Shown here piece by piece: positions 19,262 through 48,546 of a DNA stretch of 64,000 nt. This DNA is from Candidatus Latescibacterota bacterium (GTDB lineage: Bacteria > Latescibacterota > UBA2968 > UBA8231): the NCBI GenBank assembly GCA_965200315.1, contig OZ241362.1, forward strand, positions 3,200,001 through 3,264,000. The letters run 5' to 3'. The position numbers were made by a program, and so were the translations under genes. Below the pieces are notes generated by a model. That model saw nothing but the letters and a program-made list of their open reading frames with translations, had not been told where the DNA came from and did not search any database. Position 1 is the first letter of the stretch. The number at the start of each line of letters is the position of its first letter.

Positions 19262-20221
19262 GAAGCCGTCTGCAAACTATATTTTTTTCATTTGATGCGT
19301 TTGAGTAGCCAGTGGATCATGGCGATCTGAATCAAGGCTTCACTATGGTGGGTCAACACCTCATAATCTCTCGCATGCCGGCGAAAATGCGGCCGCCATA
19401 CGGCGGCCGGACTGATCATCAACCCCGCCAAGGGGCGCTCGACGACCCACCGGCGTGGTAACACCTCAAAGCCGCCGCCTTGTTTGGTGACGACTTCCCA
19501 GTCTATTTTGTGCGTCTTTTTTTGATTGGCCACCCACGTTCGGATGGCTTCGCCTTGGTAGCCGCCATCCGCCCATAGCTTCCGTAAGCGGGCCACGCCA
19601 GCGGCTCCTCAGCGGGTCAGCCCCTGCTTGAGGCCGTCGCGAGCATCCACGTCGGCGGCCGTGACCACCCCCTGTCTGAGTAAGCCCAACGTATCCACCA
19701 ACAGAGGCCGTTTGCGGCCTTTGATCTTTTTGCCGGCGTCATAACCAATGGCGTGGCCTTGGGTTGTGGTCTTAACCGTCTGACTGTCGACGAGGCCCGC
19801 CGACGGCCGCCCAGCCCGTCCGTTCCGGCGGCGCTCCTGCTGGGTACGCTGATCCAGCACCGGCGGCCAGACCCCTTGCAGGCTCCAACGACGAAAGTAA
19901 TCATACACCGTTTGCCACGGCCCAAAACAACCAGGCAACAAAGCCCAAGGACACCCCGTCTTGTTCAAATACAAAAGGCCGTTGACGATTTGGCGGCGAT
20001 CCCGCGGGGGCCGGCCCGGACCGTGAAGACGCCAGCGCGGCACCGGCCGCAACGGTGCGATCCGCCGCCATTGTGCATCGGTTCGATCGGTGGCATATGA
20101 CATAGGCGGCGTACTCAGCATACAAGCCTTTCTGTTCAGATTGTGTGGTGAACACCTGAATAGGGCTCGATGAGTACGCCGGTTCAAATAGCGGCTACAT
20201 TAAGGGTTTGCAGACGCCTTC
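19262..20221 (-). mobile_element. IS5-family element copy 1 (960 bp), transposase split by an in-frame TGA
   Basis: TIRs GAAGCCGTCTGCAAAC / GAAGGCGTCTGCAAAC; DSQTVK, YDAGKKIKGRKR, WADGGY, RWVVER motifs; ORFs 19609-20187 and 19288-19596 are in the same frame. Confidence 0.95.
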
Positions 20222-20690
20222 TCAAGTGCGTACTGTTTAATTTCGATAGATATCCACATACCGGCATCAATGAGTTGCTCAAGCAAGGGGGCGATCTTTG
20301 GAATTAAGTTCTGTTCTTTAGCACGCATCAAGATGCCAATGGTGCCTATAACGTGTAGCCCTAGTGCTTCAGCGGCATAGCGTGCGTCCAGATCATCTAG
20401 ATAATTTGGTCGGCCGATGTTTCTCTTGCCAATAGAATTGATGCACACTCACCAGCGCCCAAGGATTTTAACTCGAATGGAATGGAATGGCTATCAGGTT
20501 TTGCAATGGTGATCCAAGAATAGTCCGTTATGTTTGGAACTGAATACCCTGTTGATTTTCCCCGATTCAATTCTTGTTCAACAGCATCAGCGACTAGAAC
20601 TTCATCAAAGAGTGTCTGGAGAATATCCAATTGGCCAATGCGAAAAAGATACTGTAGTGCAGATGTATCAACCACGCATCTTTCCGGCAC
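20222..20690 (-). pseudogene. DUF3368 PIN-domain toxin, frameshifted and 3'-abutted by IS5
   Basis: VVDTSAL...LGAGE, then a frame change to LDDLDARYAAEALGLHVIGTIGIL. Confidence 0.85.
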
Positions 20691-20938
20691 TCTCGAAGTC
20701 CTTTTTCAACTCTTCACGGGTTAAATTCGCAACAGTAACTTTGTACGACTTCAAAATATCAAAAAAGCCACTCTGCCTAGGCCGGCGAGTTCTGCGGCTC
20801 GTCCCGAGGATAAGCGACCAATTTCATACAGCTTTGCTGCCAAAAGTATCCGTGCTTCCTGTGCAAACTCCTCAGGGGTTTCTTTTAGCGCATTTAGAAT
20901 GTTGGCAGGGCATTCATTTGTATACTTATAGACGACAT
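20668..20938 (-). pseudogene. UPF0175 family antitoxin, frameshifted
   Basis: ETPEEFAQEARILLAAKLYEIGRLSSGRAAELAG; the C-terminus (KSYKVTVANLTREELKKD) and the N-terminus lie in other frames. Confidence 0.8.
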
Positions 20939-21048
20939 CTTGGGCCTCCGACGGGCGACGAGGGCGGCTATGCCTCAGGCTACGTAAAAAAATACAGGGG
21001 AGGGGTAAAGGCGTTGTCAACAGAGCAGCAAAGCGGGGATCGCGCACC

Positions 21049-21615
21049 TCAACTTAGCGGTCGCAACCGCCCTTCCCCTTCCTCGTAGCCTGCTCTACAC
21101 CCCCCACAGACCAGATCATCCCCCAGCGTGATGCCACAGCGGCAGGCCCAGCCCGTCTGCCGCCCTGGCACGCCGGTTATCAGCGCATAGGCCGGCACAT
21201 CGCGGGTTACGACCGCTCCGGCACCAATGAGGGCATACGCGCCGATTTCGACACCGCAGACGATGGTCGAATTGGCCCCCAGCGAAGCCCCCTTGCGCAC
21301 CCGCGTCTCTTGGAACTCGTGTCTGCGGTCGACAAAGGCGCGGGGGTTGACGACGTTGGTAAATACCATTGACGGGCCGCAGAAGACCTCGTCTTCGAGG
21401 ATAACTCCCTTGTAGATCGAGACGTTGTTCTGTATCTTGCAGCCGTCGCCGATCACCACGCCTCGATCAACATAGACGTTCTGGCCGATATTACAGCGTT
21501 GGCCGATTTCTGCGCCGGGCATCAGGTGGCAGAAATGCCATATATGGGTTCCCGCGCCAATGGAGACCGGCTCATCGACGCAAGTGCTGGGATGGATAAA
21601 GTATTCTCTGGGCAT
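21049..21615 (-). CDS. Hexapeptide-repeat N-acetyltransferase (WbpD-like)
   Basis: IWHFCH, CNIGQNV, IQNNVSIY, GPSMVFTNV, C-terminal CxCG...CxxC. Confidence 0.93.
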   Translation of the reverse strand: MPREYFIHPSTCVDEPVSIGAGTHIWHFCHLMPGAEIGQRCNIGQNVYVDRGVVIGDGCKIQNNVSIYKGVILEDEVFCGPSMVFTNVVNPRAFVDRRHEFQETRVRKGASLGANSTIVCGVEIGAYALIGAGAVVTRDVPAYALITGVPGRQTGWACRCGITLGDDLVCGGCRAGYEEGEGRLRPLS

Positions 21616-21729
21616 GACGATAGAATATAAATTGTCCCTATCTATTTACCAATGCACCGACCGATCTTTACTTGGCCGTCCGGCCACAGCCATGGTCGGT
21701 GCAGAAACCCTTTTCATACGGAGGAAATT

Positions 21730-22689
21730 GTGAAACTAGCCACGTACTTTGCTGCTGGCGAACAGCGCGTGGGCGCAGTCGTCGGCGACGACTCTGTGGT
21801 CGTCGATCTCAGGGCGGCCGACCGCGCCTTGGCCCGCCAAGAAAGGCGCAAAATACATCCCTTCTTTACAGATATGCTGGCCCTGCTCTCCGCTGGTGCC
21901 AAGGGCCTGCGCGCCGCCAAAAAGGTCGCCGCGTATGCCGAGGGGAAGGAACCCAACGGCGAGACCATCCACGCCCTCAATAAGGTCCGCCTCCGCGCGC
22001 CCGTGCCCAACCCGAGCAAGGTCTTCTGCTTGGCCGGCAACTACCAAGACCACATCGAAGAGGGCGGCGGCAAAATGGATGCCCAAGACAAGGAAACCCC
22101 GCGCGTCTTTATGAAGCCGCCGACCACTACGGTCATCGGCCCCGGCGACCGCATTCTCATTCCCCCGATCGCCAATAGCATCGACTGGGAAGGCGAGTTG
22201 GCCGTAGTCATCGGCCGCAAGGCCAAGGGCGTCAAAGCTAAGGACTCGCTCAGGTACGTGGCCGGTTATACTGTTATGAACGATGTATCCGAGCGCGACC
22301 TCAAGATCAAGGAGCGCACCGACAGCCGCCCGCGCGACGAGTGGTTCGACTGGCTCAACGGCAAATGGCTCGACACCTTTGCCCCGCAGGGGCCTTGGAT
22401 CGTCACCGCAGACGAGATCAAGAATCCCCAAGTCCTCGACATCAGCACGTACGTCAACGGCGAGCGCAAGCAACACAACAACACCGGCCAGATGCTCTAC
22501 CCGGTTGATAAGATCATTGAGTACATCTCGGCGATTATCACCCTAGAGCCAGGCGACCTGATCAGCACCGGCACCATATCAGGCGTCGGCGCGACTACCG
22601 GCACCTTTATGAAGCCCGACGACAAGGTCGAAATCGAAATCTCCGGGATTGGCGTACTCAAAAACTCGGTCGCTGCCAGCAAGAAATAA
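21730..22689 (+). CDS. Fumarylacetoacetate hydrolase family protein
   Basis: AGNYQDH, DWEGELAVVIG, NDVSERD, GDLISTGT; GTG start after GGAGG. Confidence 0.93.
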   Translation: MKLATYFAAGEQRVGAVVGDDSVVVDLRAADRALARQERRKIHPFFTDMLALLSAGAKGLRAAKKVAAYAEGKEPNGETIHALNKVRLRAPVPNPSKVFCLAGNYQDHIEEGGGKMDAQDKETPRVFMKPPTTTVIGPGDRILIPPIANSIDWEGELAVVIGRKAKGVKAKDSLRYVAGYTVMNDVSERDLKIKERTDSRPRDEWFDWLNGKWLDTFAPQGPWIVTADEIKNPQVLDISTYVNGERKQHNNTGQMLYPVDKIIEYISAIITLEPGDLISTGTISGVGATTGTFMKPDDKVEIEISGIGVLKNSVAASKK

Positions 22690-22692
22690 CCC

Positions 22693-23910
22693 TTGCACTC
22701 AGCGTCTGCGATCACGGGCCAGGAGGGCGGGCTGCTCAGCCGCGCCTTCCTGGCTCTTTGTTTGATTTACTTTTTCGAGAGCTTCCTAGTCGCCCCCTTC
22801 CAAGCACTCTTTCCCGTCTATATCGAGGCCGATTTGGCGCGGCCTCCGTGGTTTACCGGCTATCTGCGCGGGATCATGCTGCTCCTTGGCGGCATATTTG
22901 CCGTGGTCGCTGGCCGCCTTTGCGACCGCTTTGGCCGCAAGACAACCCTGATGATCGGCCTCGTTGGCAGCGCATTCACCGGCTTAGTCTTTCGCACCGC
23001 AGACCCTTGGGGGTTGTCGTGCCTGCTTTTGGTGATGGGCGCGGCCAGCGGTCCTTGGTCCACGGCCGGGCAGAGCATCCTCATCACCGCGGTCACCCCG
23101 GCTCGACTCGGTTTGGGCGGTGCCCTCTACTTCCTCAGCAACACGCTCGGCAACGCGCTCGGCAGTCTTTGTACTGGCTTGGTCAAAACCGCCTATTCCT
23201 TCTCCCAGATCGGTGCTGTTATGAGCATCGGCATGGTCGCGGTAGTCGCCCTAGCACTAGCGTTGTTGCCCGGCGACGCGCCTAGCCCGACCACGGCGCA
23301 AACGGCGCGCCTCAATACGTGGACGGCCTATCGCCCGCTTTTGGGACGCGGCAATGTGCATCTCCTGCTCAGCCTGCGCCTGACCATCACCACCTTCTGG
23401 GGTATGGCGACGCTGGCCCTGCCCCTGTTGATCTATCGAGTTGGCCAGAGCCAATCCCTACCCGCGTATTTTGCCGCCGCTTCGCTGGTAGCTGCCGCCT
23501 GTTGCCAGCTCAGCGTCGGCTATCTCAACGACCGCCGCGGCCGCACCGCACCGCTCCTCGGCTCGGCGTCCGGCGTCTTCCTCAGCGTCTTGGGACTGGC
23601 CTTGTGGCACGATTCCCTTGTCGGCCTGTTTGCCTGCGGCACCGCTCTCACGGCTACGGCGTGGGCCGTCTCGACGCTGATCCCCCGGCTCATCAACGAC
23701 GTCGCTGCCCCCGAAGAAAAAAACCGCCTCGTCGGCTTGGGACACTTCGCTTGGAGCGGCTCGATGGTGGTCGGCAGCCTGCTCGGCGGCTATCTGATCG
23801 AGATAAATGCCGCCCTGCCCTTCTACCTCGGCACGGCCCTCACGGCGCTCGGTGCATTGGGTGCCTTTGGCCTCTGCCGCCGTCTGGACGGCGTGGGGGT
23901 TACGGCTTAG
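22693..23910 (+). CDS. MFS transporter
   Basis: About 12 hydrophobic segments, GRLCDRFGRK motif A. Confidence 0.9.
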   Translation: MHSASAITGQEGGLLSRAFLALCLIYFFESFLVAPFQALFPVYIEADLARPPWFTGYLRGIMLLLGGIFAVVAGRLCDRFGRKTTLMIGLVGSAFTGLVFRTADPWGLSCLLLVMGAASGPWSTAGQSILITAVTPARLGLGGALYFLSNTLGNALGSLCTGLVKTAYSFSQIGAVMSIGMVAVVALALALLPGDAPSPTTAQTARLNTWTAYRPLLGRGNVHLLLSLRLTITTFWGMATLALPLLIYRVGQSQSLPAYFAAASLVAAACCQLSVGYLNDRRGRTAPLLGSASGVFLSVLGLALWHDSLVGLFACGTALTATAWAVSTLIPRLINDVAAPEEKNRLVGLGHFAWSGSMVVGSLLGGYLIEINAALPFYLGTALTALGALGAFGLCRRLDGVGVTA

Positions 23911-23919
23911 ACTAGGCGA

Positions 23920-25074
23920 ATGCAAAAACTCCGCTTGTTCGTCATCACGATCTCTCATTTTTGCGTCGATAGCTACGCCACGATGTTGGCCCCGCTCTTG
24001 CCCCTGCTCAAGGTCAACTTGGGGCTGAGCTTGGCGCAAGTTGGGTTTTTGGGTTCCATCGTTTCTATATGCAATATCAGTCAGCCGCTCATGGGCTTGT
24101 GGGCCGACCGCATGGCTTGGCGCTGGCTGATCATCGGTGGCTTGGCCTTGACGACCATTTTCTCCCCGCTCATGGGGCTAGCACCCAATTACCTGACCCT
24201 CGTCGGCATCCTGACGTTGGGTGGGATTGGGGTCGCCGCCTTCCACCCCCAAGTCTTTTCGCTGGCCGGCGAACTCAGCAGTCCGCGCCGCTCCTTCGGC
24301 TTGGCGCTCTTTATCTTCGGCGGGACGCTGGGGCTGGGTCTAACGCCGCTGTGGGCACCCGCTTATACCAATTCCTTCGGACTGGCCGCCCTGCCCTACC
24401 TGTCCATTCCTGGCCTGTTGTTCCTGTTGCTCGTCTGGCGCACGGTGCCGCTCGGCAACCCCAACTTCTCCCACGGCAGAAGCACAGCCCAATGGCGCAG
24501 TCTCGGCGACCAAGCCGGTCCGCTCGTGCTAATCACCGCAATCGTCATTTTGCGCTCGGTATCGGGACTGGGCTTTGGCACGTTTTTGACGCTCATGGCC
24601 CAAGAGCGCGGCCTCGGTCTCGTCGCGGGCGGCATTCCCTTGGGGATCTACAATATCGCCGGGGTGGTCGGTGCGCTCGTCGTTGGCTATCTGGCTGACC
24701 GCGTCGATCCCAAACCGCTGGTCTGGGGATCGCTGCTGTGCTCGGCGCCGCCGCTCTACGCCTTCATCTATGCCGAGGGAACGCTGGCCAGCTACAGCCT
24801 GCTTTTTTTAGGCGGCGGCCTGTTGCTGTCTTCCAACTCGATTATGGTCGCCTTGGCCCAAGAGTTTTCGCCGGAAAATTCGGGCTTGGTCTCCAGCCTG
24901 CCGCTGGGCTTTAGCTGGGGAGTGGCCAGCCTCGCGCTGCCGCTGATCGGCTATCTCGGCGACCAGATCGGCGTGGCTGAGACCTTGAAATACCTAGCCT
25001 TGCTACCGATATTGACCGCTGGACTGGCCTTCTTCCTGCCCAACAGCCCAACCGCAAAGGACGCCGCGCCATGA
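23920..25074 (+). CDS. MFS transporter (Fsr-like)
   Basis: SHFCVD, QPLMGLWADR, AAFHP, GYLADR. Confidence 0.9.
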   Translation: MQKLRLFVITISHFCVDSYATMLAPLLPLLKVNLGLSLAQVGFLGSIVSICNISQPLMGLWADRMAWRWLIIGGLALTTIFSPLMGLAPNYLTLVGILTLGGIGVAAFHPQVFSLAGELSSPRRSFGLALFIFGGTLGLGLTPLWAPAYTNSFGLAALPYLSIPGLLFLLLVWRTVPLGNPNFSHGRSTAQWRSLGDQAGPLVLITAIVILRSVSGLGFGTFLTLMAQERGLGLVAGGIPLGIYNIAGVVGALVVGYLADRVDPKPLVWGSLLCSAPPLYAFIYAEGTLASYSLLFLGGGLLLSSNSIMVALAQEFSPENSGLVSSLPLGFSWGVASLALPLIGYLGDQIGVAETLKYLALLPILTAGLAFFLPNSPTAKDAAP

Positions 25075-25853
25075 GCTTGCTCATTTTAGACTCCGAGCAG
25101 AAGCAGTTTTTCGACGACAACGGCTATCTCCTGCTCAAAGGCTTCTATGGCCCGGCCGAGATGGAGCAGATGCGCGGCGAGTTTCATCGCTTGGTGACCG
25201 AGATCGAAAATCGGCCCAAGAACGTCAAGTACTCCTTCATGGACGCGCCGAAAGGCTACGCGCCCGACTCCTTCAACCCGCGCAATGTAGTCGGCATGAT
25301 GGATCAGACCTTGGCTGGCGACTACTGGTTCGATCAGTTTACCGAGCCGCGCATTGTCTCGGTCATGGTTGATCTTTTGGGCCAAGACCTCGACTTCCAC
25401 AACGGCAAGGTCCGCAATAAACCCCCCGGCTTTGTCTGCACCCAAAGCTGGCACCAAGACTGGCCTTACGAGCGCCACACCGAGCCAGACTTGGCCGCGG
25501 CCATTACGTACCTTGATCCGAGTGGATTTGAAGCCGGGGCTACCGAGGTCCTGCCCGGCAGCCACCTCAAGGGCGAATATCCCACGTTAGAAAACAGCCA
25601 CACCATCCCAGACGAGTACGTTCCTGTTAGTGAGCAGGTCGTCTTGGAGGCCGAGCCGGGCGACGTGGCCATCATCCACGTCCTCGTCGTCCACCGCGCC
25701 GGCCACAACTACACCCCGCGCACCCGCCACGCCATTATTAATGAGTACAAAACCGCGGCCACCATCGACCAATGGGGCAACTCCTGCGCCTTTGCCGGCT
25801 TGCCGCTGGCCCGCAATGGCCAGCTCTTGATGCCGCGCGTTTATCAGGGATGA
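25071..25853 (+). CDS. Phytanoyl-CoA dioxygenase family protein
   Basis: FFDDNGYL, WHQD, PGSH, VHRAG. Confidence 0.92.
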   Translation: MSLLILDSEQKQFFDDNGYLLLKGFYGPAEMEQMRGEFHRLVTEIENRPKNVKYSFMDAPKGYAPDSFNPRNVVGMMDQTLAGDYWFDQFTEPRIVSVMVDLLGQDLDFHNGKVRNKPPGFVCTQSWHQDWPYERHTEPDLAAAITYLDPSGFEAGATEVLPGSHLKGEYPTLENSHTIPDEYVPVSEQVVLEAEPGDVAIIHVLVVHRAGHNYTPRTRHAIINEYKTAATIDQWGNSCAFAGLPLARNGQLLMPRVYQG

Positions 25854-25901
25854 TGCGGCTCCCAACGTACGCTCGCCTTCCCGCCTTGATTATTGTTATA
25901 A

Positions 25902-27860
<1,959 letters not shown>

Positions 27861-27900
27861 ATCACCGGCGACTTTTCAACCAAATAGAAAAGAGAGGAAG

Positions 27901-28893
27901 ATGGACAAAATTCGCGTGGGATTTATCGGCTGTGGTGGAAACGCCAGCGGGCACCTAGGGAGAGTGCTTGACATCCCCGAGACCGAAGTGGTGGCGCTGT
28001 GCGATGTGGATCAGGCCAGCCTACAGCGAGCTAAAGAGCGCAACTCGCAGGCCGCAGCGTTGCCGGAGTTTACCCACTACCAAAAGATGCTGGAGCAAGT
28101 CGAACTGGACGCGGTAGAGATTTCCACGCCGCACACATTGCACTTTGAGCAGATTATGGCTGCGCTGGACAAAGGGCTGCACGTGCTGACCGAAAAGCCA
28201 ATGGTCTGTACTGTCGATCACGCGCACCAAGTTATCGCCAAAGCCGAGAAGACCGGCAAGGTCCTGATGATCTCCTATCAGCGGCACTTGCAGGCGCAGT
28301 ACCGCTATGTGCGCAATCAGATCGCGGCCGGGGAATTGGGGGATATCCAGTTTATATCGGCGCTCCAAGACCAGAAGTGGCATCAGGGGACGATTGGGCT
28401 GTGGCGGCAGCAGATGGCGCTGTCGGGCGGCGGACAGCTCAACGATTCGGGAAGCCATCTACTAGACATTGTGTTGTGGATGACCGGGCTGGAGGTGGCA
28501 GAGGTGCAGGCCTACATGGACTATTTAGACTCTGAGGTGGACATCAACTCGGCGCTGTCGCTGCGCTTTCGCAACGGCGCGCTGGGGACGATTGCGGTGG
28601 TGGGCAACTCGCCGACCGGCGGAATCTGGGAGGACATCACCATCTGGGGGACCAAGGCCGTGGTCTACATTCGCCGGGGAGAGGTCTTTTATAAGACGCA
28701 GCACAGCAATGAGGTGTACGAAGTAAACAACTTGCCCGGCTCGACGACGCCCGACCAGAATTTCATCGACGCGATTCTCGGCCGCGATCAGGTGCAGGTG
28801 CCCCCCGAATGCGGCCTGCGGGTCATTGAACTGACCGAGGCAGCTTGGGCCTCGGCCGCTAGCGGGCAGCCGGTGAAAGTAAAAAGCATTTGA
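27901..28893 (+). CDS. Gfo/Idh/MocA oxidoreductase
   Basis: GFIGCG, HVLTEKP, GGGQLNDSGSH. Confidence 0.95.
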   Translation: MDKIRVGFIGCGGNASGHLGRVLDIPETEVVALCDVDQASLQRAKERNSQAAALPEFTHYQKMLEQVELDAVEISTPHTLHFEQIMAALDKGLHVLTEKPMVCTVDHAHQVIAKAEKTGKVLMISYQRHLQAQYRYVRNQIAAGELGDIQFISALQDQKWHQGTIGLWRQQMALSGGGQLNDSGSHLLDIVLWMTGLEVAEVQAYMDYLDSEVDINSALSLRFRNGALGTIAVVGNSPTGGIWEDITIWGTKAVVYIRRGEVFYKTQHSNEVYEVNNLPGSTTPDQNFIDAILGRDQVQVPPECGLRVIELTEAAWASAASGQPVKVKSI

Positions 28894-28919
28894 CATGGTT
28901 CTTCGGCGTTTGTCATATT
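28890..28919 (+). promoter_or_regulatory. Sigma70-type promoter driving the candidate ncRNA
   Basis: TTGACA (28890-28895), then extended -10 TGtCATATT (28911-28919). Confidence 0.7.
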
Positions 28920-28924
28920 AAACG

Positions 28925-29226
28925 CAAGACGGGTTCAGGTGCTATAGCTCCTGTTACCGCCACGCTGAGGCTCGAGGCTACGCGAGCGAGCCAGCCCGGC
29001 TTTGTAATTGGCCGCAACGACGCGCAGAGTTGGAGCATAGATTATGAGGCGCGCACAAGCGAAAGGAGGTGGTCCATTGAGTAGTAATTGTACCGCAGGG
29101 AGGTTGGTCACTTGATCAACTCCAGGTGATTGACTACCTGGTCAGAAGTTATGTCGCCGAGGCGACACCGCTTCTGAGAGTACAGCCGGGCGCACCCCAC
29201 CTTAGCGGGTGCGCCCGGTTTTTTTT
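28925..29226 (+). ncRNA. Candidate structured RNA with an extended 16S 3'-end complement and a 12-codon ORF
   Basis: Own promoter and terminator, multiple hairpins, GAAAGGAGGTGGTCCA at 29061-29076, sORF TTG...TGA 29077-29115. Confidence 0.7.
29184..29226 (+). terminator. Strong intrinsic terminator
   Basis: CCGGGCGCACCC...GGGTGCGCCCGG followed by T8. Confidence 0.93.
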
Positions 29227-29292
29227 GCCCGCGCTGCACTAAGTTGATTTCCACGCGGTATTTTTGTCATATTGTCCGCAAGGAGGCCGTCT

Positions 29293-30264
29293 ATGAAACG
29301 CATTGCCAAGCCCGCAGGGGCCTATAACATCGTGGTAGAAGAGGTCGAGATTCCGGCCATTGCCCCGACCGAGATTTTGATTCGCGCCGAATGTTCGCTT
29401 ATCAGCCGCGGCTCGGAGATTTGGCGGCGCTACGTGCGCGAAGAAGCGATCGACCACCGCTCTATGGGCTACTCGCTGGTGGGCCGCGTCGAAAAGGTGG
29501 GCGCGGAGGTCGAAGAGTTCAGAACCGGTGAGCTGGTCGCGGCCCTCGCGCCGCATGCCGAGTACGTAGCGGTCGAAGTCGCAGCCAGCCGGCACAAGCC
29601 AGCGGCCGTGCGCCTGCCAGCGGGCCTGTCGCCCGAGGCGGGCACCTTCTGGCCGCTGGGAACTAGCTCGGTCCTGTGGATGTGGGAGACCGAGGCCGGC
29701 CCGGATGATGCCGTGGTCATTCAGGGGCAGGGCTTGGTCGGCAGCGGTTGTATGCAGGCGGCCAAGGCACAGGGCGCGGGGCGCGTCATCGGGGTTGATA
29801 CCTTGCCCTTGCGCTGCGAACTAGCGCACGAGTTGGGGGCCGACGCGGTGATAGACGCCAGCGCCGGCGACCCTGTTGCACAGGTCTTAGAGCTGACGGA
29901 CGGAGCGGGTGCCGACATCGTGGTTGAAGCCGTGGGCGGGCGGGCCGGGGCGCAGGCTTTTGCCGAGGCGCAAGACATGCTCAAGCGCGGCGGCCTCTTG
30001 CAGGTGCTGGGCCTATACGAAAACGAACCTCTGCCGCTCTATTCAGAAAAAATCATGGGCAAGCGCCTCATAGGCAGCTACCTCGACGCCAGTCGGCGGC
30101 CCGAAGGATCGGCACGTACGCTAGAATTGTTGGCTACGGACCAGATCCAATTCGCCAAGATGATCACCCACCGCTTCCCCTACACAGAAGCGGCCGCCGC
30201 TTTCGACTTGCTCTACAATCGGTTGGGCGCGACGATGGCCGTATTGTTGACGTGGGACAACTGA
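29293..30264 (+). CDS. MDR-family (zinc-binding-type) dehydrogenase
   Basis: SLISRGSE, GYSLVG, GQGLVG, ITHRFP. Confidence 0.9.
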   Translation: MKRIAKPAGAYNIVVEEVEIPAIAPTEILIRAECSLISRGSEIWRRYVREEAIDHRSMGYSLVGRVEKVGAEVEEFRTGELVAALAPHAEYVAVEVAASRHKPAAVRLPAGLSPEAGTFWPLGTSSVLWMWETEAGPDDAVVIQGQGLVGSGCMQAAKAQGAGRVIGVDTLPLRCELAHELGADAVIDASAGDPVAQVLELTDGAGADIVVEAVGGRAGAQAFAEAQDMLKRGGLLQVLGLYENEPLPLYSEKIMGKRLIGSYLDASRRPEGSARTLELLATDQIQFAKMITHRFPYTEAAAAFDLLYNRLGATMAVLLTWDN

Positions 30265-30279
30265 CTCAGGAGACGACGT

Positions 30280-30975
30280 ATGAGTAGGACCGTAGAGAAG
30301 CTCTTCCGCGCCCCTTACGGGGTGCCCAATGCGCTGCAAGTAGTAGAAGAAGGACTGTGGATTACCGACCAAATTACCGACCGGGTGGCGCTGATCGAAA
30401 TCGCCGATCCGTCTGAATACGGCGTCACCCGCCTGATCCGCGATATCCCCAGCGAGTCGTCCAATACCAGCGGCATGGCTTGGGGCGGTGGTTCGCTGTG
30501 GTTGGCGGCCAACGGGGCGAGTACGCTCTGGCGGCCCTCACGGCCGACGGACGCTGAGGAGGGAGAAATTTTCGAGGTCAATCCGGCCACTGGCGCGACC
30601 CGCAACCGCTACCCGGTGCCCGGCGGGGGCGGGGTTCACGGGATGGAGTACGATCCGTTTGAAGATGGCTGCGTGTGGATCACCACCCTCAAGAGCCAGA
30701 CGCTGAGCAAAGTCAAGATTGCCGGCTGGTCGGTCGAGCACGTGCTGGAGTTGCCTTACGGGCGGGCGCACGGCGTGGTGCGGGTCGCCGACGGCATCTG
30801 GGTGGTGCATACGTCCGACCGCGTGATCGTCAAGCTCGACGTGGAGAGCGGGGCCGAGTTGGATCGAGTTGTGGTGCCCGGCAGCGCCCCCGAGCCGCAT
30901 GGCCTGTCGATTTTTGGCGAGGATTTGATCTATTGCGACGCCACGTCTGGATGGGTCACTAAAATCAGTCTGTGA
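30280..30975 (+). CDS. Beta-propeller hypothetical protein
   Basis: Repeated blades PNAL / TSGMAW / VHGME / AHGV / PHGL. Confidence 0.65.
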   Translation: MSRTVEKLFRAPYGVPNALQVVEEGLWITDQITDRVALIEIADPSEYGVTRLIRDIPSESSNTSGMAWGGGSLWLAANGASTLWRPSRPTDAEEGEIFEVNPATGATRNRYPVPGGGGVHGMEYDPFEDGCVWITTLKSQTLSKVKIAGWSVEHVLELPYGRAHGVVRVADGIWVVHTSDRVIVKLDVESGAELDRVVVPGSAPEPHGLSIFGEDLIYCDATSGWVTKISL

Positions 30976-36845: not shown

Positions 36846-36865
36846 GCGCGACGCAAGAATTCTGC

Positions 36866-39592
36866 ATGAGCGAAAAAGTTCTCTTCCTGCTCGATGGCAT
36901 GGCGTTGGTCTATCGGGGCCATTTCGCCTTGATCCGCAATCCGCGTCTGACCTCAAAGGGCATGAACACGTCGGCCGTTTTTGCCTTTGCCAACACCTTG
37001 CTCTCCATCATCGAAAAGGGCGAGCCGACACATATCGCCGTCGTCTTCGACACACCTGAGCCCACGCACCGGCACCGCAAGTACGAAGAATACAAAGCCC
37101 AGCGCGAGGCGATGCCCGAGGACTTGAGCCAAGCACTGCCTTATGTATTCCGGCTCTGCGAGGCGTTTAACATTCCGGTCTTGCGCGAGCCGGGGTGGGA
37201 GGCCGACGACGTGATCGGCACGTTGACCAAAAAGGCCGAGGCCGAGGGGTTTGCGACGTACATGGTCACGCCCGACAAAGACTACGGCCAGCTCGTTTCC
37301 GAGCGGAGCTTTATGTACAAGCCGGGGCGCGGCGGCGACGAGGCCGAGGTTTTGGGGGTGCCGGAGATTCTCGCCCAATGGCAGGTCGAGCGGATCGACC
37401 AAGTGATCGATGTGTTGGGGCTGATGGGCGACTCTTCGGACAATGTGCCGGGCGTCCCTGGGATCGGCCCCAAGACAGCGCAAAAGCTCATCGCCCAGTA
37501 CGGCAGCGTCGAAGAGTTGCTGGCGCATACCGACCAGCTCAAGGGCAAGCAGAAACAGAACGTAGAGGAACACCGGGAACAGGCCCTCCTTTCCAAGGAA
37601 CTGGTCACCATCGAGTGCAATGTCCCGCTGGACGCGGGGCTGGCGGATTTGGTTAAGGCCGAATGGGACCGCCAGAAGCTAAAGGCCCTCTTCACTGAAT
37701 TGGAATTCAATACGCTGGGCCGGCGGCTCCTCGGCGACGATTTTAGCACTGAAAAGGAGCAGGACCACGGCCCGCTCAAAGGGGTGGCGGATGTGGAGCA
37801 CGACTATCAGCTCGCCGATGCGCCCGACAAGCGACGGGCGTTGATCGCGGCGCTATTGGAGCAGCCCGCGTTTTGCTTTGACTGCGAGACCAACGGCCTC
37901 GACGTCCGGCGATGCGACTTGATTGGCTTGGCCTTTTCGTGGGCACCGGGCACGGGCCACTACGTGCCGCTGCCTCGGGAGCGGGCCGAGGTGCTAGCCG
38001 TTTTGGAGGAATTCCGCCCGGTTTTTGCAAGTAGAGAGAGCGAAAAAATCGGCCACAACCTCAAGTACGATCTCAGCGTCCTCCGCTGGCACGGCATGCG
38101 GGTCGAAGGCCCGTTCTTCGACACCATGCTGGCGGCGACCTTGGCCGAGCCAGAGCTGAGACGCAGCATGGACGAGCTGGCCAAGAGCCTGCTCTCCTAC
38201 TCACCCAAGCCCATATCCGAGCTGATCGGCGAGCGCGGCGGTGAGCAGCTAACGCTCTTGCAGGTGCCGGTGGAGCAAGTGGCCGAGTACGCCTGCGAGG
38301 ACGCGGACATTACCTTCCAGCTCGCTGCGGCGCTGCGGCCGAAAATCGAAGCCATGGATCAGCAGCGCGTTTTTTACGAGATCGAGGCCCCGCTCCTGCC
38401 GGTGCTGGTCGATATGGAATACGAGGGCATCCGCATGGAAACGGCGGCCCTCTCCGCGCTCTCGCGGCAGTTTGAGGAGGCCATTGAGCAGGCTGCTGAG
38501 CGCGTCTTTGAGCTAGCCGGCGAGCGCTTCAACCTCAATTCGGGCCATCAGCTCGGGACTGTGCTGTTTGAGAAGTTGGGGCTGGACCCCAAGGCGCGGC
38601 GGACGCAGAAGACCGGCCAGTACCAGACGGGCGAGCAGATCTTGCGCCGCTTGTCCCATCGCCACGAAATCGTGCGGCAGGTGCTCGACTACCGATTGCA
38701 CACCAAGCTCAAGTCGACGTATGTGGATCAGCTACCTAGCGCGGTCTTTAAGAACACTGGGCGCGTCCACACCAACTACGAGCAGCTGATGACCGCTACC
38801 GGGCGCATGAAATCCGACCGCCCGAACCTCCAGAACATCCCCATCCGCAGCGAGCAGGGGCGGGAAATCCGCCGTGCCTTTGTGCCGCGCAGCAGCGAAT
38901 ACCAGCTTTTCTCGGCCGACTATTCACAGATCGAGCTGCGGATCGCCGCTGCGCTTAGCAGTGACGAGGGGATGCTGGACACGTTTAGGAGCGGTGGCGA
39001 CATCCATGTAGCGACCGCGACAAGGATCTACGGGGTTGCCGAGGAGCAGGTGACGGCGCAGATGCGGCGGCAGGCCAAGACGGTGAACTTCGGTATCATC
39101 TATGGGATTTCGGCGTTTGGACTGGCCGAGCGGCTCGACATTTCGCGCGGAGCGGCCAAAGATCAGATAGACGAGTACTTTGCTCAGTATCCCGGCGTGA
39201 AGTGTTACATCGACGAAACCGTGGAGTTCGCCCGCGACAAGGGCTACGTCGAGACGGTGACCGGGCGGCGGCGCTATCTGCGCGACATTAACTCGCGCAA
39301 CGCCACCACCCGCAAAGGGGCCGAGCGCAACGCCATCAATACCCGCATTCAGGGCACGGCTGCTGACATGATTAAGCTGGCGATGAGCCGCATTCACCGG
39401 CTGCTGCTGAAGGAGAGGTTCCGTTCGGCCATGCTGTTGCAGGTCCACGACGAATTGGTCTTCGACCTGCACCGGGACGAGGTGGAGACTCTACCGCCGC
39501 TAGTCGCGCGCGAGATGCGCGAGGCCCTGCCGATGGAGGTGCCGGTGGACATTGAGGTGGGGATGGGTGAGAACTGGCTGGAGGCGCACTGA
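36866..39592 (+). CDS. polA: DNA polymerase I
   Basis: 5'-3' exo (LLDG, EADD, GDSSDN), PNLQNIP, DYSQIELR, QVHDEL, NWLEAH. Confidence 0.98.
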   Translation: MSEKVLFLLDGMALVYRGHFALIRNPRLTSKGMNTSAVFAFANTLLSIIEKGEPTHIAVVFDTPEPTHRHRKYEEYKAQREAMPEDLSQALPYVFRLCEAFNIPVLREPGWEADDVIGTLTKKAEAEGFATYMVTPDKDYGQLVSERSFMYKPGRGGDEAEVLGVPEILAQWQVERIDQVIDVLGLMGDSSDNVPGVPGIGPKTAQKLIAQYGSVEELLAHTDQLKGKQKQNVEEHREQALLSKELVTIECNVPLDAGLADLVKAEWDRQKLKALFTELEFNTLGRRLLGDDFSTEKEQDHGPLKGVADVEHDYQLADAPDKRRALIAALLEQPAFCFDCETNGLDVRRCDLIGLAFSWAPGTGHYVPLPRERAEVLAVLEEFRPVFASRESEKIGHNLKYDLSVLRWHGMRVEGPFFDTMLAATLAEPELRRSMDELAKSLLSYSPKPISELIGERGGEQLTLLQVPVEQVAEYACEDADITFQLAAALRPKIEAMDQQRVFYEIEAPLLPVLVDMEYEGIRMETAALSALSRQFEEAIEQAAERVFELAGERFNLNSGHQLGTVLFEKLGLDPKARRTQKTGQYQTGEQILRRLSHRHEIVRQVLDYRLHTKLKSTYVDQLPSAVFKNTGRVHTNYEQLMTATGRMKSDRPNLQNIPIRSEQGREIRRAFVPRSSEYQLFSADYSQIELRIAAALSSDEGMLDTFRSGGDIHVATATRIYGVAEEQVTAQMRRQAKTVNFGIIYGISAFGLAERLDISRGAAKDQIDEYFAQYPGVKCYIDETVEFARDKGYVETVTGRRRYLRDINSRNATTRKGAERNAINTRIQGTAADMIKLAMSRIHRLLLKERFRSAMLLQVHDELVFDLHRDEVETLPPLVAREMREALPMEVPVDIEVGMGENWLEAH

Positions 39593-39597
39593 GGGGC
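39561..39597 (+). repeat. Direct repeat copy 1 (polA 3' end)
   Basis: GGATGGGTGAGAACTGGCTGGAGGCGCACTGAGGGGC. Confidence 0.95.
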
Positions 39598-39666
39598 CGA
39601 GCGGATGCTGGGAAGCTATGATTGTACGCAGGAAAATATGGCACGTGCGTCTGCGAGGGACGCAAA

Positions 39667-46348: not shown

Positions 46349-46987
46349 ATGTACGACGAATGGAAGCCCATCTACTCGGCTTTAGTCACCGACATCATGG
46401 ACCAACTCGGCTACCGCGATCAGGCCATGACTCCCGATATCCGGCCCAGCCGCCCCGACGCCTTCATCGCCGGCCCGGCGCTCACCATCGACGCGTACGC
46501 CGATGCTAGCCCCGACCCCGACCCCTACGGCCAAATTTTTGCCGCCTACGATCAAGCCAGCCCCGGCGACGTGTTCGTCATCGCCACCAATGGCGAAGAG
46601 CGCTCTGGCCTTTGGGGCGAACTTCTCTCCACGGCGGCCCAAGCTCGCGGCGTCGAATCCGTGCTCACCGACGGCTTGGTCCGCGATGTGCGCCAGATGA
46701 ACGCCATGGGCTACCACTGCTTCTGCAAAGGCTATTCGCCGCTCGATTCGGCGGGCCGCATCCTCGCCAAAACGATCAACCAACCTATCACCTGCGGCGG
46801 TGTGCAGGTTCACCCCGGCGATTTTATTCTAGCTGACTACGATGGCGTGGCGGTGATTCCGGCGGCGATCCAAGGCGAAGTCTACGAAAAGGCCATGGAA
46901 AAGCTCGCCGGGGAAAACGTCGTGCGCGATGAATTGGCTGCGGGGAAATCGCCGCGGGAAGTCTTTGATCGCTACGGGATATTGTGA
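46349..46987 (+). CDS. RraA family / HMG aldolase-like protein
   Basis: LWGELLST, DGLVRD, V.PGD...AD.DGV. Confidence 0.92.
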   Translation: MYDEWKPIYSALVTDIMDQLGYRDQAMTPDIRPSRPDAFIAGPALTIDAYADASPDPDPYGQIFAAYDQASPGDVFVIATNGEERSGLWGELLSTAAQARGVESVLTDGLVRDVRQMNAMGYHCFCKGYSPLDSAGRILAKTINQPITCGGVQVHPGDFILADYDGVAVIPAAIQGEVYEKAMEKLAGENVVRDELAAGKSPREVFDRYGIL

Positions 46988-47018
46988 TTGCTTCTAAATG
47001 AAGGAGAGACCTGCACCC

Positions 47019-47186
47019 ATGAGTTTTACGGCCATAATAACTAGGAGCGAAGATTTGACTTTATTCGTCGCTCGTTGTCCCCAAGTAGGTACGGTTAGTC
47101 AAGGAAAGACTGAGGAGGAAGCACTGAAAAATCTCAAAGAGGCTACCGAGCTGTACTTGGAAGAAGTCACAAACAGTCTAAAGTAG
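47019..47186 (+). CDS. Short HicB-family antitoxin, no adjacent hicA
   Basis: VARCPQVGTVSQGKTEEEALKNLKEATELYLEE. Confidence 0.85.
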   Translation: MSFTAIITRSEDLTLFVARCPQVGTVSQGKTEEEALKNLKEATELYLEEVTNSLK

Positions 47187-47234
47187 GCTGCCTGTTCTGT
47201 TTGGGCTAGCGGCGTACTTTGGGATTTCGCCAAT

Positions 47235-47586
47235 TTATTTTTGGATTGCCTCGTACAGGCTTTGCTTAAACTTGTTTTCGTCTTCACAGTTATAAAATGG
47301 TACGCCTATCAATCTATATTTTTGAGTCCTGCCCTGAGTCTTAAATTCCAGTATTTCCCCATCGAACTTGTCCGTTAATTGTTTTAGGAAGTCCTGTTTC
47401 CATTTGTCGTGTTCTTGCAGGTATTTTCCCTTGGGTTCAACAAATATCTGATGAGTAAGCATGTTTCCACTTTTTTCGCGCAGAAAGAGAACAAAGTCTG
47501 GCTCAAACGCCTGTCCATTGTCAAAGCTGTAGATTTTGAAGTGTCTTTCGTTGCGGACCAGATATATCTCGTCGTATTTTTCTTAA
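47235..47586 (-). pseudogene. C-terminal fragment of a type III restriction (Res) subunit, truncated by IS5
   Basis: YLVRNERHFKIYSFDNGQAFEPDFVLFL...IFVEPKG PD-(D/E)xK motif; AT-rich. Confidence 0.8.
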
Positions 47587-48546
47587 GAAGGCGTCTGCAA
47601 ACCCTTAATGTAGCCGCTATTTGAACCGGCGTACTCATCGAGCCCTATTCAGGTGTTCACCACACAATCTGAACAGAAAGGCTTGTATGCTGAGTACGCC
47701 GCCTATGCCATATGCCACCGATCGAACCGATGCCCAATGGCGGCGGATCGCACCGTTGCGGCCGGTGCCGCGCTGGCGTCTTGACGGTCCGGGTCGGCCC
47801 CCGCGGGATCGCCGCCAAATCGTCAACGGCCTTTTGTATTTGAACAAGACGGGGTGTCCTTGGGCTTGGTTGCCGGGTTGTTTTGGGCCGTGGCAAACGG
47901 TGTATGATTACTTTCGTCGCTGGAGCCTGCAAGGGGTCTGGTCGCCGGTGCTGAATCAGCGTACCCAGCAGGAGCGTCGCCGGAACGGACGGGCTGGGCT
48001 GCCGTCGGCGGGCCTCGTCGACAGTCAGACGATTAAGACCACAACCCAAGGCCACACCCTTGGTTATGACGCCGGCAAAAAGATCAAGGGACGCAAACGG
48101 CCTCTGTTGGTGGATACGTTGGGCTTACTCAGACAGGGGGTGGTCACCGCCGCCGCCGTGGATGATCGCGACGGCCTCAAGCAGGGGCTGACCCGCTGAG
48201 GAGCCGCTGGCGTGGCCCGCTTACGGAAGCTATGGGCGGATGGCGGCTACCAAGGCGAAGCCATCCGAACGTGGGTGGCTAATCAAAAAAAGACGCACAA
48301 AATAGACTGGGAAGTCGTCACCAAACAAGGCGGCGGCTTTGAGGTGTTACCACGCCGGTGGGTCGTCGAGCGCCCCTTGGCGGGGTTGATGAGCAGTCCG
48401 GCCGCCGTATGGCGGCCGCATTTTCGCCGGCATGCGAGAGATTATGAGGTGTTGACCCACCATAGTGAAGCCTTGATTCAGATCGCCATGAGCCACTGGC
48501 TACTCAAACGCATCAAATGAAAAAAATATAGTTTGCAGACGGCCTC
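47587..48546 (+). mobile_element. IS5-family element copy 2 (960 bp), same in-frame TGA
   Basis: TIRs GAAGGCGTCTGCAAAC / GAGGCCGTCTGCAAAC; near-identical to copy 1 in inverted orientation. Confidence 0.95.

Follow-up and report, generated by a model that had tools for sequence, protein, structure and literature searches.

The window analysed here is a 64,000-nucleotide stretch of the genome of an uncultured marine bacterium (Candidatus Latescibacterota, contig OZ241362.1), in which two copies of an IS5-family element lie in inverted orientation. A preliminary description of this DNA noted that many differences between the two transposase genes are A/C or T/G transversions and offered two explanations: a MutT-deficient mutation spectrum showing under relaxed selection, or a repeat-targeted process loosely analogous to RIP in fungi. 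The locus raises the question of whether A:T>C:G changes are truly in excess and, if so, whether the excess belongs to the genome or to its mobile DNA.

Structure and state of the element copies

The genome contains four broken copies, A–D, of one IS5-family element. Copies A and B form inverted arms of 969 nt each that are 98% complementary, and the end points given in the preliminary description, 19262 and 48546, coincide with the ends of the IS proper in our alignment. The features referred to below, numbered from the first nucleotide of the window, are as follows.

19258-20226, minus strand: copy A, IS5-family, arm of the inverted repeat; IS proper 19262-20221 (inverted repeat and alignment)
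19389-19415, minus strand: 27-nt insertion in copy A (alignment)
19609-19611, minus strand: in-frame TGA of copy A, at the codon equivalent to that in copy B (alignment)
20227-21060, no strand assigned: AT-rich flank with toxin-antitoxin-like genes, adjoining copy A; boundary control
47582-48550, plus strand: copy B, IS5-family, arm of the inverted repeat; IS proper 47587-48546 (inverted repeat and alignment)
47587-47604, plus strand: left terminal inverted repeat (IR) of copy B, GAAGGCGTCTGCAAACCC, where relatives have GAAGCCGTCTGAAAACCC; A>C at IR position 12
48197-48199, plus strand: in-frame TGA splitting the transposase frame of copy B (translation and alignments)
48393-48419, plus strand: 27-nt insertion in copy B (alignment)
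48531-48546, plus strand: terminal inverted repeat at the right end of copy B, GTTTGCAGACGGCCTC; T>G at IR position 12, mirroring the change on the left (alignment column 958)

The family assignment follows from the equivalog model NF033580 (transpos_IS5_3, cut-off 110 bits), which scores the read-through product of copy B at 176.2 bits and an intact relative at 236.4 bits. The domains matched are PF13340 (DUF4096, N-terminal; 92.3 bits) and PF01609 (DDE_Tnp_1, catalytic; 63.5 bits). Terminal inverted repeats and a 3-bp TNA duplication, as in the IS5 family (NF033580), are found: the elements of relatives have the ends GAAGCCGTCTGAAAAC...GTTTTCAGACGGCTTC flanked by TTA, TCA or TAA, and MITE copies have the same ends and flanking triplets. 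In two relatives whose site is uninterrupted, the right-hand target of copy A reads TCA, and the two triplets flanking each of copies A and B are now mismatched with each other. None of copies A–D has the single open transposase frame (267 aa in relatives) by which an autonomous element is recognised.

Copies A and B are each inactivated by the in-frame TGA and the 27-nt insertion; copy C carries a 1-nt deletion and is truncated at its 3' end, and copy D consists of the 5' 600 bp only. The stop codon arose by T>G, since copy C has TTA at this codon and relatives have TTG. The insertion, which contains the palindrome GGCCGCC-GTAT-GGCGGCC, is common to copies A, B and C and missing from all 15 outgroup copies. 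The A>C change at IR position 12 recurs in fragment E, a further remnant, and in two copies of a 155-bp MITE. Changes in the copies fall at codon positions in the ratio 17/26/19; intact lineages are third-position rich. We conclude that all four copies are remnants of a single IS5-family element, dead and non-autonomous, and because they share disabling changes (H>P, W>G and the 27-nt insertion) they must have multiplied after death.

Short-read contigs from four runs of two studies reproduce the flanks, with no differences over 785 + 752 bases in three of the four, and also confirm where copies A, C and D and fragment G join their surroundings; the copies are therefore no artefact of assembly. 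Twelve sites at which the copies divide 2:2 give the partition AC|BD at columns 206-365 (and column 482) and AD|BC at columns 400-588. The copies are thus mosaic, and recombination has taken place among them. Copy B lies at a break in synteny, the DNA of the window to its left and right mapping to different places in relatives.

An excess of A:T>C:G changes

Copies A and B differ at 24 bases, comprising 12 transitions, ten A/C or T/G differences, two C/G and no A/T. Their translations differ at 13 amino acids, seven of them through A/C or T/G (TTG/TGG, CGG/CTG, ATT/CTT, GAC/GCC, GCT/GAT and ATC/AGC twice), and both figures agree with the approximate counts of the preliminary description. One slip concerns its CTG/CGG pair, which belongs to the R/L codon at AGRPS/AGLPS; the CCT/CCG difference next to it is synonymous. 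Of the six departures from IS5 consensus motifs that it listed, five stand (DLTD>DRTD, PLLP>PLRP, KRHL>KRPL, T>P with W>G in ERT(F/L)AWL, and LEVV>WEVV); the sixth, GCQW>GCPW, falls away, as relatives likewise read GCPW.

The changes were polarised against a panel of 15 IS copies from eight genomes of the same genus. Seventy-one are specific to the four copies of this genome, and 35 of them are A:T>C:G; the remainder comprise 14 A:T>G:C, ten G:C>A:T, five G:C>T:A, seven G:C>C:G and no A:T>T:A. The ten other IS lineages give 61/378 (Fisher p = 7e-9), and restricting the panel to intact lineages again returns 35/71, so that the enrichment suspected earlier survives alignment to an outgroup. It is present in every copy (A 24/48, B 27/50, C 19/40, D 23/35) and in every frequency class: 16/25 among changes fixed in all copies, 11/25 among those in some and 8/21 among private changes. 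Measured against a share of 0.166, which is that expected from host fourfold rates, the binomial p values are 1e-7, 0.001 and 0.015, respectively, and 2e-10 overall. Among the few private changes of copies A and B, transitions predominate. Changes from AT to GC outnumber the reverse by 49 to 15, and some sites have been changed repeatedly (column 64 three times, column 183 twice, and column 17 together with its mirror, column 958). In the IS copies the rate ratio, A:T>C:G per A:T site over G:C>A:T per G:C site, comes to 2.9-4.2. The A:T>C:G excess is confirmed as real.

Single-copy DNA and the element boundary

As a host control we used the single-copy DNA that surrounds and separates the copies, about 32 kb in all, on the same branch. 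Here A:T>C:G accounts for 118 of 1362 changes and A:T>G:C for 322, and 970 of the 1362 are transitions, in keeping with the premise of the preliminary description that neutral decay is transition-dominated. At fourfold sites there are 29 A:T>C:G among 419 changes (601 A:T sites), against 81 transitions at A:T; at aligned non-coding sites there are none among 28 changes and 212 sites, or 4/421 when the quality filter is lifted. The rate ratio given above for the IS copies falls to 0.91 when host fourfold sites are taken and to 0.29 when all host sites are. We conclude that the signature is roughly 3-10 times as strong in the copies as in host neutral DNA. The size of the excess varies with the neutral reference: strict singletons at fourfold sites of this genome number seven A:T>C:G and seven A:T>G:C, and against 7:7 the 35:14 of the IS copies is, taken alone, non-significant.

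The AT-rich flank at 20227-21060 gives a local comparison. Homologues from eight genomes assign it 14 genome-specific changes, two of them A:T>C:G, and the fraction of A:T sites so changed is 2/351 compared with 27/355 in copy B (Fisher p = 1e-6). No rise in A:T>C:G was seen in the 1-kb bins adjoining the copies. The bias stops at the IS boundary. The first explanation in the preliminary description, a genome-wide MutT-deficient spectrum under relaxed selection, is not supported by these counts (118/1362, fourfold 29/419 and non-coding 0/28 over about 32 kb, with a rate ratio of 0.91 versus 2.9-4.2).

Sequence context and repair genes

The changes are balanced between strands: read along the top strand, 18 are A>C and 17 are T>G. 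By 5' neighbour, the changed As number 14/95 after G, 14/107 after C, 6/114 after A and 1/47 after T; a 5' G or C thus precedes 28 of 35 changed As, whereas such sites make up 202 of the 363 available (p = 0.002). No 3' C preference was seen in the IS copies (10/90 versus 11/109 for 3' A). The signature is 8-oxo-dGTP-like: A:T>C:G, preferentially where G or C precedes the A, with the two strands equally affected. It resembles the MutT-deficient spectrum of E. coli and P. aeruginosa mutT lines, in which 8-oxo-dGTP is placed opposite A, in the almost pure A:T>C:G nature of the change, in the preceding G or C and in the coldness of A/T-flanked sites. It differs in extent, a mutT defect affecting the whole genome, whereas host neutral sites here are ordinary.

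A related signature, of Pol IV (DinB) and oxidised dGTP, consists, according to PMC12318082, of A>C at 5' G and/or 3' C, with cold AAA, AAT and TAA and an oxo-dGTP hotspot at GAA+TTC. That work matches our data in the A>C changes at 5' G, in an uneven distribution along the chromosome and in many function-destroying Ala, Gly and Pro replacements. It differs in describing laboratory mutT lines with clusters of 0.25 Mb, the unit here being a 1-kb element, and in the 3' C preference, which is not seen here; moreover, the genus appears to lack the canonical N-terminal half of the IMS domain. A Y-family-like protein of 307 aa is found in all 31 genomes of the genus but matches only the second half of IMS (30-48 bits), a full match occurring in just two of the 31; in this genome a 300-aa frame scores 75.7 bits for IMS_C and 30 bits for IMS, at positions 74-148 only. 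As judged from these matches, the genus appears to be without a canonical Pol IV.

Among repair genes, MutY (315 bits), Fpg and MutS are all encoded, and gene content does not set this genome apart. The best match to the MutT model TIGR00586 is the C-terminal domain of MutY, at 81 bits and below cut-off; other Nudix proteins here reach at most 41 bits, and only three of 14 control genomes pass the cut-off. Apart from the MutY domain, no match exceeds about 49 bits in the 31 genomes, and the picture is alike in all of them, the lack of a model-level MutT match being common to the whole genus.

These observations bear on a transient genome-wide mutator episode, in which sanitation of 8-oxo-dGTP was lost and regained and the result is visible only where selection is absent. 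The confinement of the MutT-model match to MutY would suit such an episode, as would the context of host A:T>C:G changes, which share the 5' lean (odds ratio 1.7, p = 0.011), and a fourfold rate of 48-51 per 1000, slightly over that of two relatives (28 and 46 per 1000). However, an effect of the size seen in the IS (about 6% of A:T sites) predicts about 38 extra events at the 601 fourfold A:T sites, where there are 29 in all; the non-coding sites are unchanged or nearly so, and the matches to the MutT model are alike in 31/31 genomes. We regard the episode as close to refuted.

Other repeats and other genomes

Dead fragments of the same IS family in ten other genomes have 24 A:T>C:G among 211 changes, with 49 A:T>G:C and 71 G:C>A:T, and a rate ratio of 0.36 as against 2.94 here (p = 1e-7). 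The bias appears in just two of the genomes examined. In the second, G019, the fragments give 16/32 (p = 2e-6 versus dead fragments elsewhere). Within the present genome, the IS remnants E and F, which are 75-84% like any other copy, have 5/20 and 6/21 (p = 0.014 versus the 24/211 elsewhere). Two MITE families, whose changes could be polarised by majority rule only, show 29 A:T>C:G to 22 A:T>G:C, where the corresponding host counts are 118 and 322 (p = 3e-5); the MITE ratio is not different from the 35:14 of the IS (p = 0.15). The 155-bp MITE has the same terminal repeats as the IS element; a MITE family with unrelated ends shows the same lean. In the two remnants and the two MITE families the lean is weaker than in the main copies.

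Amelioration and GC-biased gene conversion, including A/G-specific correction by MutY, move foreign DNA towards host composition. The chance that ordinary amelioration of this kind produced the pattern, the transversion share being noise and choice of reference, seems to us small. In its favour, a dead element of 54% G+C has moved to 59% (53-56% in outgroup copies, 59-61% in this genome's copies) in a host whose fourfold sites are about 86% G+C (3692 G:C, 601 A:T); the host fourfold A:T>C:G rate of 48 per 1000 is about half the 76 per 1000 of copy B, and the strict singletons stand at 7 to 7. Host rates nevertheless predict more transitions than transversions (81 versus 29 at fourfold sites), whereas the copies have 14 and 35, far from the expected share of 0.166. 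Fragments of the same family in the ten other genomes, under the same compositional pressure, do not show the bias, and the pattern is independently repeated in G019. Conversion bias, moreover, is unable to create alleles absent from every copy.

RIP introduces point mutations into repeated mobile DNA of fungi, affecting all copies and destroying the transposase; it makes C:G>T:A transitions in a dinucleotide context and at far higher density, through a cytosine methyltransferase-like enzyme (RID/DIM-2-like) in the sexual cycle. The present changes are likewise confined to repeated mobile DNA and affect all copies (24/48, 27/50, 19/40 and 23/35; flank 2/14), but they are A:T>C:G, reach about 8-10% of A:T sites and include only 10/71 G:C>A:T. 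Duplication sensing, a feature of RIP, is putative at most here. Diversity-generating retroelements (DGRs) convert A on one strand to any base by means of a reverse transcriptase and a template repeat. Adenines are targeted here too, but on both strands (18 versus 17), with A>T at 0/71 and no template/variable repeat pair.

A dedicated bacterial analogue of RIP, recognising the element by homology or by its ends and mutating A:T pairs to disable it, would account for the sharp boundary, the restriction to two genomes, the involvement of independent lineages of one family in one genome, the damage to conserved residues and both terminal repeats, and the repeated changes at columns 64, 17/958 and 183. 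We consider it very improbable. No candidate gene is put forward, none being known for A:T>C:G, and no guide-like matches to the element were found outside its remnants and the MITE ends; the signature fits an oxidised-nucleotide error of a general kind, which the host also shows at low level; MITEs with unrelated ends lean alike; and the per-site levels are modest. The repeat-targeted explanation of the preliminary description is therefore upheld as regards restriction to repeats, by the flank comparison and the MITE lean; nothing indicates a dedicated RIP-like system, and time spent in mutator hosts accounts for the pattern as well.

Origin of the signature

We tentatively prefer a reading in which error-prone, oxidised-nucleotide DNA synthesis was confined to repeated mobile DNA. 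It builds on the observed excess, on its polarity, context and confinement to the element, and on the finding that the copies are dead and have recombined with one another. The extra changes would stem from low-fidelity synthesis undergone by repeated mobile DNA alone, possibly repair or gene-conversion synthesis between dispersed copies; a polymerase would insert oxidised dGTP opposite A, and MutY might then fix the A-to-C change and favour the C:G allele in A/G heteroduplexes. This mechanism, in which the changes would have arisen in place, is a proposal reasoned rather than observed in each of its steps. Several findings speak against it. Fragments E and F have diverged too far to recombine readily, yet they are intermediate; dead fragments beside many active copies elsewhere should recombine, but their spectrum is normal; repair synthesis would be expected to extend into the flanks, and the flank is clean. 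The transitions among the few private changes of copies A and B and the probable lack of a canonical Pol IV also count against it.

The main rival, which we hold to be somewhat unlikely, is that the element, mobilised in trans, spent time in MutT-deficient-like mutator strains, hosts or replicons and brought the signature with it; mobile DNA left those backgrounds and their core genes did not. The sharp boundary and clean flank are as for insertion of pre-mutated DNA, enrichment peaks in changes common to all copies (16/25) and is lowest at the tips, transitions prevailing among the private changes of copies A and B, and the disabling changes are shared. The 155-bp MITE shows that trans-mobilisation works in this genome, a near-identical strain in run X3 has copies with other flanks (loose ends), and host DNA of G019 itself leans more to A:T>C:G (17 versus 22 A:T>G:C at fourfold sites). 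This history would, however, require the element to have entered separately on several occasions, or to have resided for long in lineages of which the host core shows no sign; the lean is, moreover, common to three independent IS lineages and two MITE families of a single genome. Nor did a copy of this type turn up in the 29 other genomes of the genus that were searched (all 30 but G046), in species-representative genomes or in metagenome contigs, where the single match was unrelated.

Whether the changes arose by synthesis in place or were carried in from mutator backgrounds, an excess present in mobile DNA and missing from the surrounding chromosome suggests that the mobile DNA has had a mutation history of its own.

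State of the IS5-family copies

G000, the genome that contains the window at positions 3,200,001–3,264,000, is a single contig of 5.36 Mb with a G+C content of 59.2%, from a genus within Candidatus Latescibacterota that is known from metagenome-assembled genomes only. It holds four copies (A–D) of an IS5-family element and three short remnants (E, F and G) of the same family.

19258–20226, minus strand: copy A, one arm of an inverted 969-bp repeat, IS5-family element; the IS proper is 960 bp, 19262–20221
47582–48550, plus strand: copy B, the other arm, IS5-family element; the IS proper is 960 bp, 47587–48546
19389–19415 (copy A) and 48393–48419 (copy B): 27-nt palindromic insertion inside the dead transposase frame, also in copy C
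Outside the window: copy C, 879 bp, 94.5% identity, 3'-truncated, adjoining a different, 1.85-kb IS
Outside the window: copy D, the 5' 600 bp of the element, 97.5% identity

The read-through transposase product contains PF13340 and PF01609 and matches NF033580 at 176 bits, compared with 236 bits for an intact relative. All four copies are dead. Copies A and B have an in-frame TGA in common. At this codon copy C has TTA and relatives have TTG; the stop is thus itself a T>G change. The 27-nt insertion forms a perfect 7-bp hairpin with a 4-nt loop. Conserved positions are altered, H>P in all four copies and W>G in copies A, B and C, which are those covering the site, and copy C has a 1-nt deletion. 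The changes specific to the four copies fall at codon positions 1/2/3 as 17/26/19; every intact lineage is third-position rich. Around the palindrome, a 45-nt stretch is 82% alike in one unrelated metagenome contig.

Since disabling changes are common to the copies, the element either multiplied after its death or was homogenised, and both are plausible. Twelve sites divide the four copies 2:2, pairing AC against BD at alignment columns 206–365 and 482 and AD against BC at columns 400–588, and these blocks of differing pairing show recombination among the copies. Short-read contigs from four runs in two studies, which are short within the element and were used for flanks and junctions, reproduce the flanks, as well as the junctions of fragment G and of copies A, C and D; the copies are thus no artefact of one assembly.

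An excess of A:T>C:G changes

A preliminary description had proposed an A:T>C:G bias in copies A and B. All 13 of the amino-acid differences on which it drew, and its seven A/C or T/G codon pairs, are present in the translations; of six motif deviations named there, five hold against real relatives, and the sixth, GCQW>GCPW, is shared by the whole group. At the nucleotide level, the two copies differ at 24 bases, comprising 12 transitions, ten A/C or T/G differences, two C/G and no A/T.

Polarity was assigned using copies from eight other genomes of the genus (79–87% identity, ~935 bp, 53–56% G+C). Most of these keep one open 267-aa frame, and in a tree the G000 copies form one clade inside their diversity. 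A base on which 80% or more of the ten other lineages agree was taken as ancestral. Parsimony against these extant copies then yields 71 derived changes in the four G000 copies, counted raw and uncorrected for multiple hits: 35 A:T>C:G, 14 A:T>G:C, 10 G:C>A:T, 5 G:C>T:A, 7 G:C>C:G and no A:T>T:A. The other ten lineages together have 61 A:T>C:G among 378 changes (p = 7e-9 against 35 of 71), and 35 of 71 is obtained again with another reference panel, made up solely of intact lineages. We conclude that the bias is confirmed as real, and it holds up statistically in comparison with controls of four kinds. Searching the literature for a bacterial transversion bias restricted to repeats turned up fungal or general works only, and such a report may still be in print.

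The host chromosome as control

Some 32 kb of single-copy window DNA (4478–18890, 21048–39600 and 48600–63750) was aligned with relatives, and a change was placed on the G000 branch where its three nearest relatives agree. The rate ratio is the per-site A:T>C:G rate divided by the per-site G:C>A:T rate; for copies A–D it is 2.9–4.2.

Changes in single-copy host DNA on the G000 branch (p values are against the IS copies)
Sites; changes; A:T>C:G; A:T>G:C; G:C>A:T; A:T sites; G:C sites; rate ratio
All; 1362; 118; 322; 648; 12249; 19801; 0.29 (p = 4e-12)
Fourfold; 419; 29; 81; 196; 601; 3692; 0.91 (p = 0.0002–0.002)
Aligned non-coding; 28; 0; 8; 14; 212; 220; –

As a genome-wide spectrum, the MutT-deficient one put forward in the preliminary description is not supported: host single-copy DNA is ordinary (118 of 1362 changes; 29 of 419 at fourfold sites), and these counts come close to excluding a genome-wide mutator state or episode. 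Confinement to mobile DNA, implied by its other reading of repeat-targeted mutagenesis, is supported, both the host DNA and the flank of copy A being ordinary. From host fourfold rates and the composition of the element, the expected A:T>C:G share is 0.166, compared with the observed 35 of 71 (p = 2e-10). A stricter count, of changes unique to G000 among ~20 genomes, gives 61 A:T>C:G in 794 at all sites and 7 A:T>C:G to 7 A:T>G:C at fourfold sites; the latter, a small sample, does not by itself differ significantly from 35:14. The excess thus ranges from 3- to 10-fold with the choice of neutral reference.

No rise in A:T>C:G is found in the 1-kb bins adjoining the copies. The 834 bp touching copy A (55% A+T), in which the genes are probably under selection, have 2 A:T>C:G among 14 changes; 2 of 351 A:T sites changed to C:G in this flank, compared with 27 of 355 in copy B (p = 1e-6). 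A regional effect near the replication terminus is ruled out, as the host DNA that separates and adjoins the copies has an ordinary spectrum.

The window's host genes (4478–39600 and 48600–63750) have fourfold sites of ~86% G+C, compared with 59% for the genome. Per 1000 fourfold sites, A:T>C:G (48) occurs at about four times the rate of G:C>T:A (11), and the two transitions are less far apart (135 and 53). By count, G:C>A:T is the leading class of recent host change.

Other repeats and other genomes

Remnants E and F, from other sub-lineages of the IS family, have A:T>C:G in 5 of 20 and 6 of 21 changes (p = 0.014 against fragments in other genomes). In two MITE families, rare variants, which were polarised by majority rule and cover a longer history and are therefore weaker evidence, give A:T>C:G to A:T>G:C ratios of 15 to 12 and 14 to 10; pooled, 29:22 differs from the host's 118:322 (p = 3e-5) and not from the 35:14 of the IS (p = 0.15).

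520223–520377 of the contig, and about a dozen other places, all outside the window: 155-bp MITE, copies 71–90% alike
54346–54480 of the window, and ~30 places in the genome (for example 3031964–3032334 of the contig): modular repeat family of ~370 bp

The 155-bp MITE has the IS family's own terminal repeats (GAAGCCGTCTGAAAAC ... GTTTTCAGACCGCCTC) with TNA target duplications, which, in a dozen or so copies, shows mobilisation in trans. Two of its copies have the same A>C in the terminal repeat as the IS copies. In relatives, weak partial matches were all that was found, in two of five genomes searched. The ~370-bp family is bounded by TATAGCAATCCTAC ... GTAGGATTGCTATA, with G+C-rich hairpins inside, and has no match in the nearest complete relative, G010.

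The excess is not a property of the IS sequence family. Seventeen small dead fragments of it in ten other genomes, set against the same reference, have 211 changes, of which 24 are A:T>C:G, 49 A:T>G:C and 71 G:C>A:T, a rate ratio of 0.36 compared with 2.94 in the G000 copies (p = 1e-7). Longer, mostly open copies in other genomes likewise have an ordinary spectrum. It is unlikely, then, that ordinary amelioration, with chance, lies behind the excess: it predicts more transitions than transversions and should appear in these fragments as well.

The exception is G019, another genome of the genus, in which two fragments of a different sub-lineage have A:T>C:G in 16 of 32 changes (p = 2e-6 against the other fragments), some at the very sites changed in the G000 copies. 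Host DNA in G019 also leans more strongly to A:T>C:G (17 to 22 A:T>G:C at fourfold sites), which makes a genome-wide cause more credible there.

Sequence context and repair genes

The 35 changes, read on one strand, comprise 18 A>C and 17 T>G and are spread along the element. The A is preceded by G or C in 28, where such sites make up 202 of the 363 available (p = 0.002), and host A:T>C:G changes have the same leaning. A study of P. aeruginosa mutT lines (PMC12318082) describes insertion of oxidised guanine nucleotides by Pol IV, A>C changes where there is a 5' G and/or a 3' C, an oxo-dGTP hotspot at GAA+TTC with AAA, AAT and TAA cold, and regional clusters; according to a preprint (10.1101/2022.10.28.514265), bacterial T>G hotspots follow runs of G. 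Given the 5' G or C and this published signature, the chemistry is most simply 8-oxo-dGTP opposite A.

MutT, MutY and Fpg have textbook roles in the defence against oxidised guanine. G000 has intact MutY (315 bits), Fpg (287 bits) and MutS (1015 bits); apart from the C-terminal domain of MutY, no match to the MutT model exceeds ~49 bits in the 31 genomes. Repair-gene content does not single out G000 among them, and loss of mismatch repair is ruled out, MutS being intact in all 31. The sole Y-family-polymerase-like gene of G000 is a 300-aa frame at 955692–956591 of the contig, with IMS_C and thumb domains and a match to the catalytic IMS domain that covers its second half only. The frame is kept at ~307 aa in all 31 genomes, and two alone have a second, canonical copy.

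Dam/GATC targeting was rejected. Three to four changes lie on GATC adenines, without enrichment; counted by eye, 3 of ~16 GAT sites within GATC and 2 of ~17 others are changed.

Surroundings of the copies

Copy B lies at a synteny break in window 47500–48600: its left-hand DNA continues one locus of relatives and its right-hand DNA another, the two being up to 5.6 Mb apart in one relative. The left flank of copy A has no collinearity with an uninterrupted site found in two relatives. Copy A sits in a 2.2-kb islet (window 18890–21047) that the nearest relatives do not have. Its frames at 18990–19295, which runs into the IS end, and 20200–20690 are small and, by translation only, toxin–antitoxin-like; other genomes have its right-hand part elsewhere, with no IS. 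A composite transposon is ruled out, since the 27 kb between the copies are core DNA, collinear with relatives at ~90% identity.

Copies A–D all fall within 2.87–3.49 Mb of the contig (clustering P = 0.006), and the cumulative GC-skew curve is irregular at 3.0–4.5 Mb. The 1.85-kb element lies at 3482293–3484144 and four or five other places; its 5–6 copies are 99.7–100% identical, and it has therefore presumably been active recently. One of these copies adjoins truncated copy C, and an intact DDE_Tnp_1 frame (3481437–3481940) is next to it.

Origin of the excess

Two readings fit the restriction to mobile DNA. We tentatively entertain the possibility that the changes arose in place, through error-prone synthesis that repeats alone undergo; MutY would then fix C:G alleles and spread them among copies. 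Signs of recombination favour this, together with the enrichment in the shared-by-some and private classes of change and a bias common to several independent families of element within a single genome. Against it count the effect on diverged single remnants, the clean flanks and the ordinary spectrum of fragments beside active copies in other genomes.

Alternatively, and only slightly less probably in our view, the copies evolved in mutator backgrounds and then entered G000. The sharp boundary at the IS ends, an enrichment strongest in the oldest class of change, the predominance of transitions among changes private to copy A or copy B and the continued mobility of a dead element would all be accounted for, but several separate entries are required, and copies of the G000 type were found in none of 29 other genomes of the genus and in no species representative, the one match among metagenome contigs being unrelated.

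Very improbable, in our estimation, is that some members of the lineage direct A:T>C:G mutagenesis of the oxidised-nucleotide type at mobile DNA, killing ISs and their MITEs step by step and leaving the chromosome next to them untouched. Homology, the ends of the element or repeated breakage might serve as the cue. Such a process, if true, would be the bacterial equivalent of fungal RIP, to which the preliminary description had loosely likened it, with a different chemistry. A search for guide-like matches gives dedicated targeting no support: the short exact matches to the element outside the remnants are MITE ends, with no spacers.

The neutral mutation bias of a genome is commonly read from the substitution spectra of its pseudogenes and dead ISs. 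In this case dead mobile DNA differs 3- to 10-fold from host neutral sites in one class of change, so that, at least in G000, the mutational history written in mobile DNA is not that of the chromosome. Should the changes have arisen in place, they would be natural evidence of local error-prone synthesis with oxidised nucleotides at repeats, or of a targeted process, and also of a bacterial route to the disabling of transposons; if they arose elsewhere, dead elements could be used to trace time spent in mutator backgrounds.
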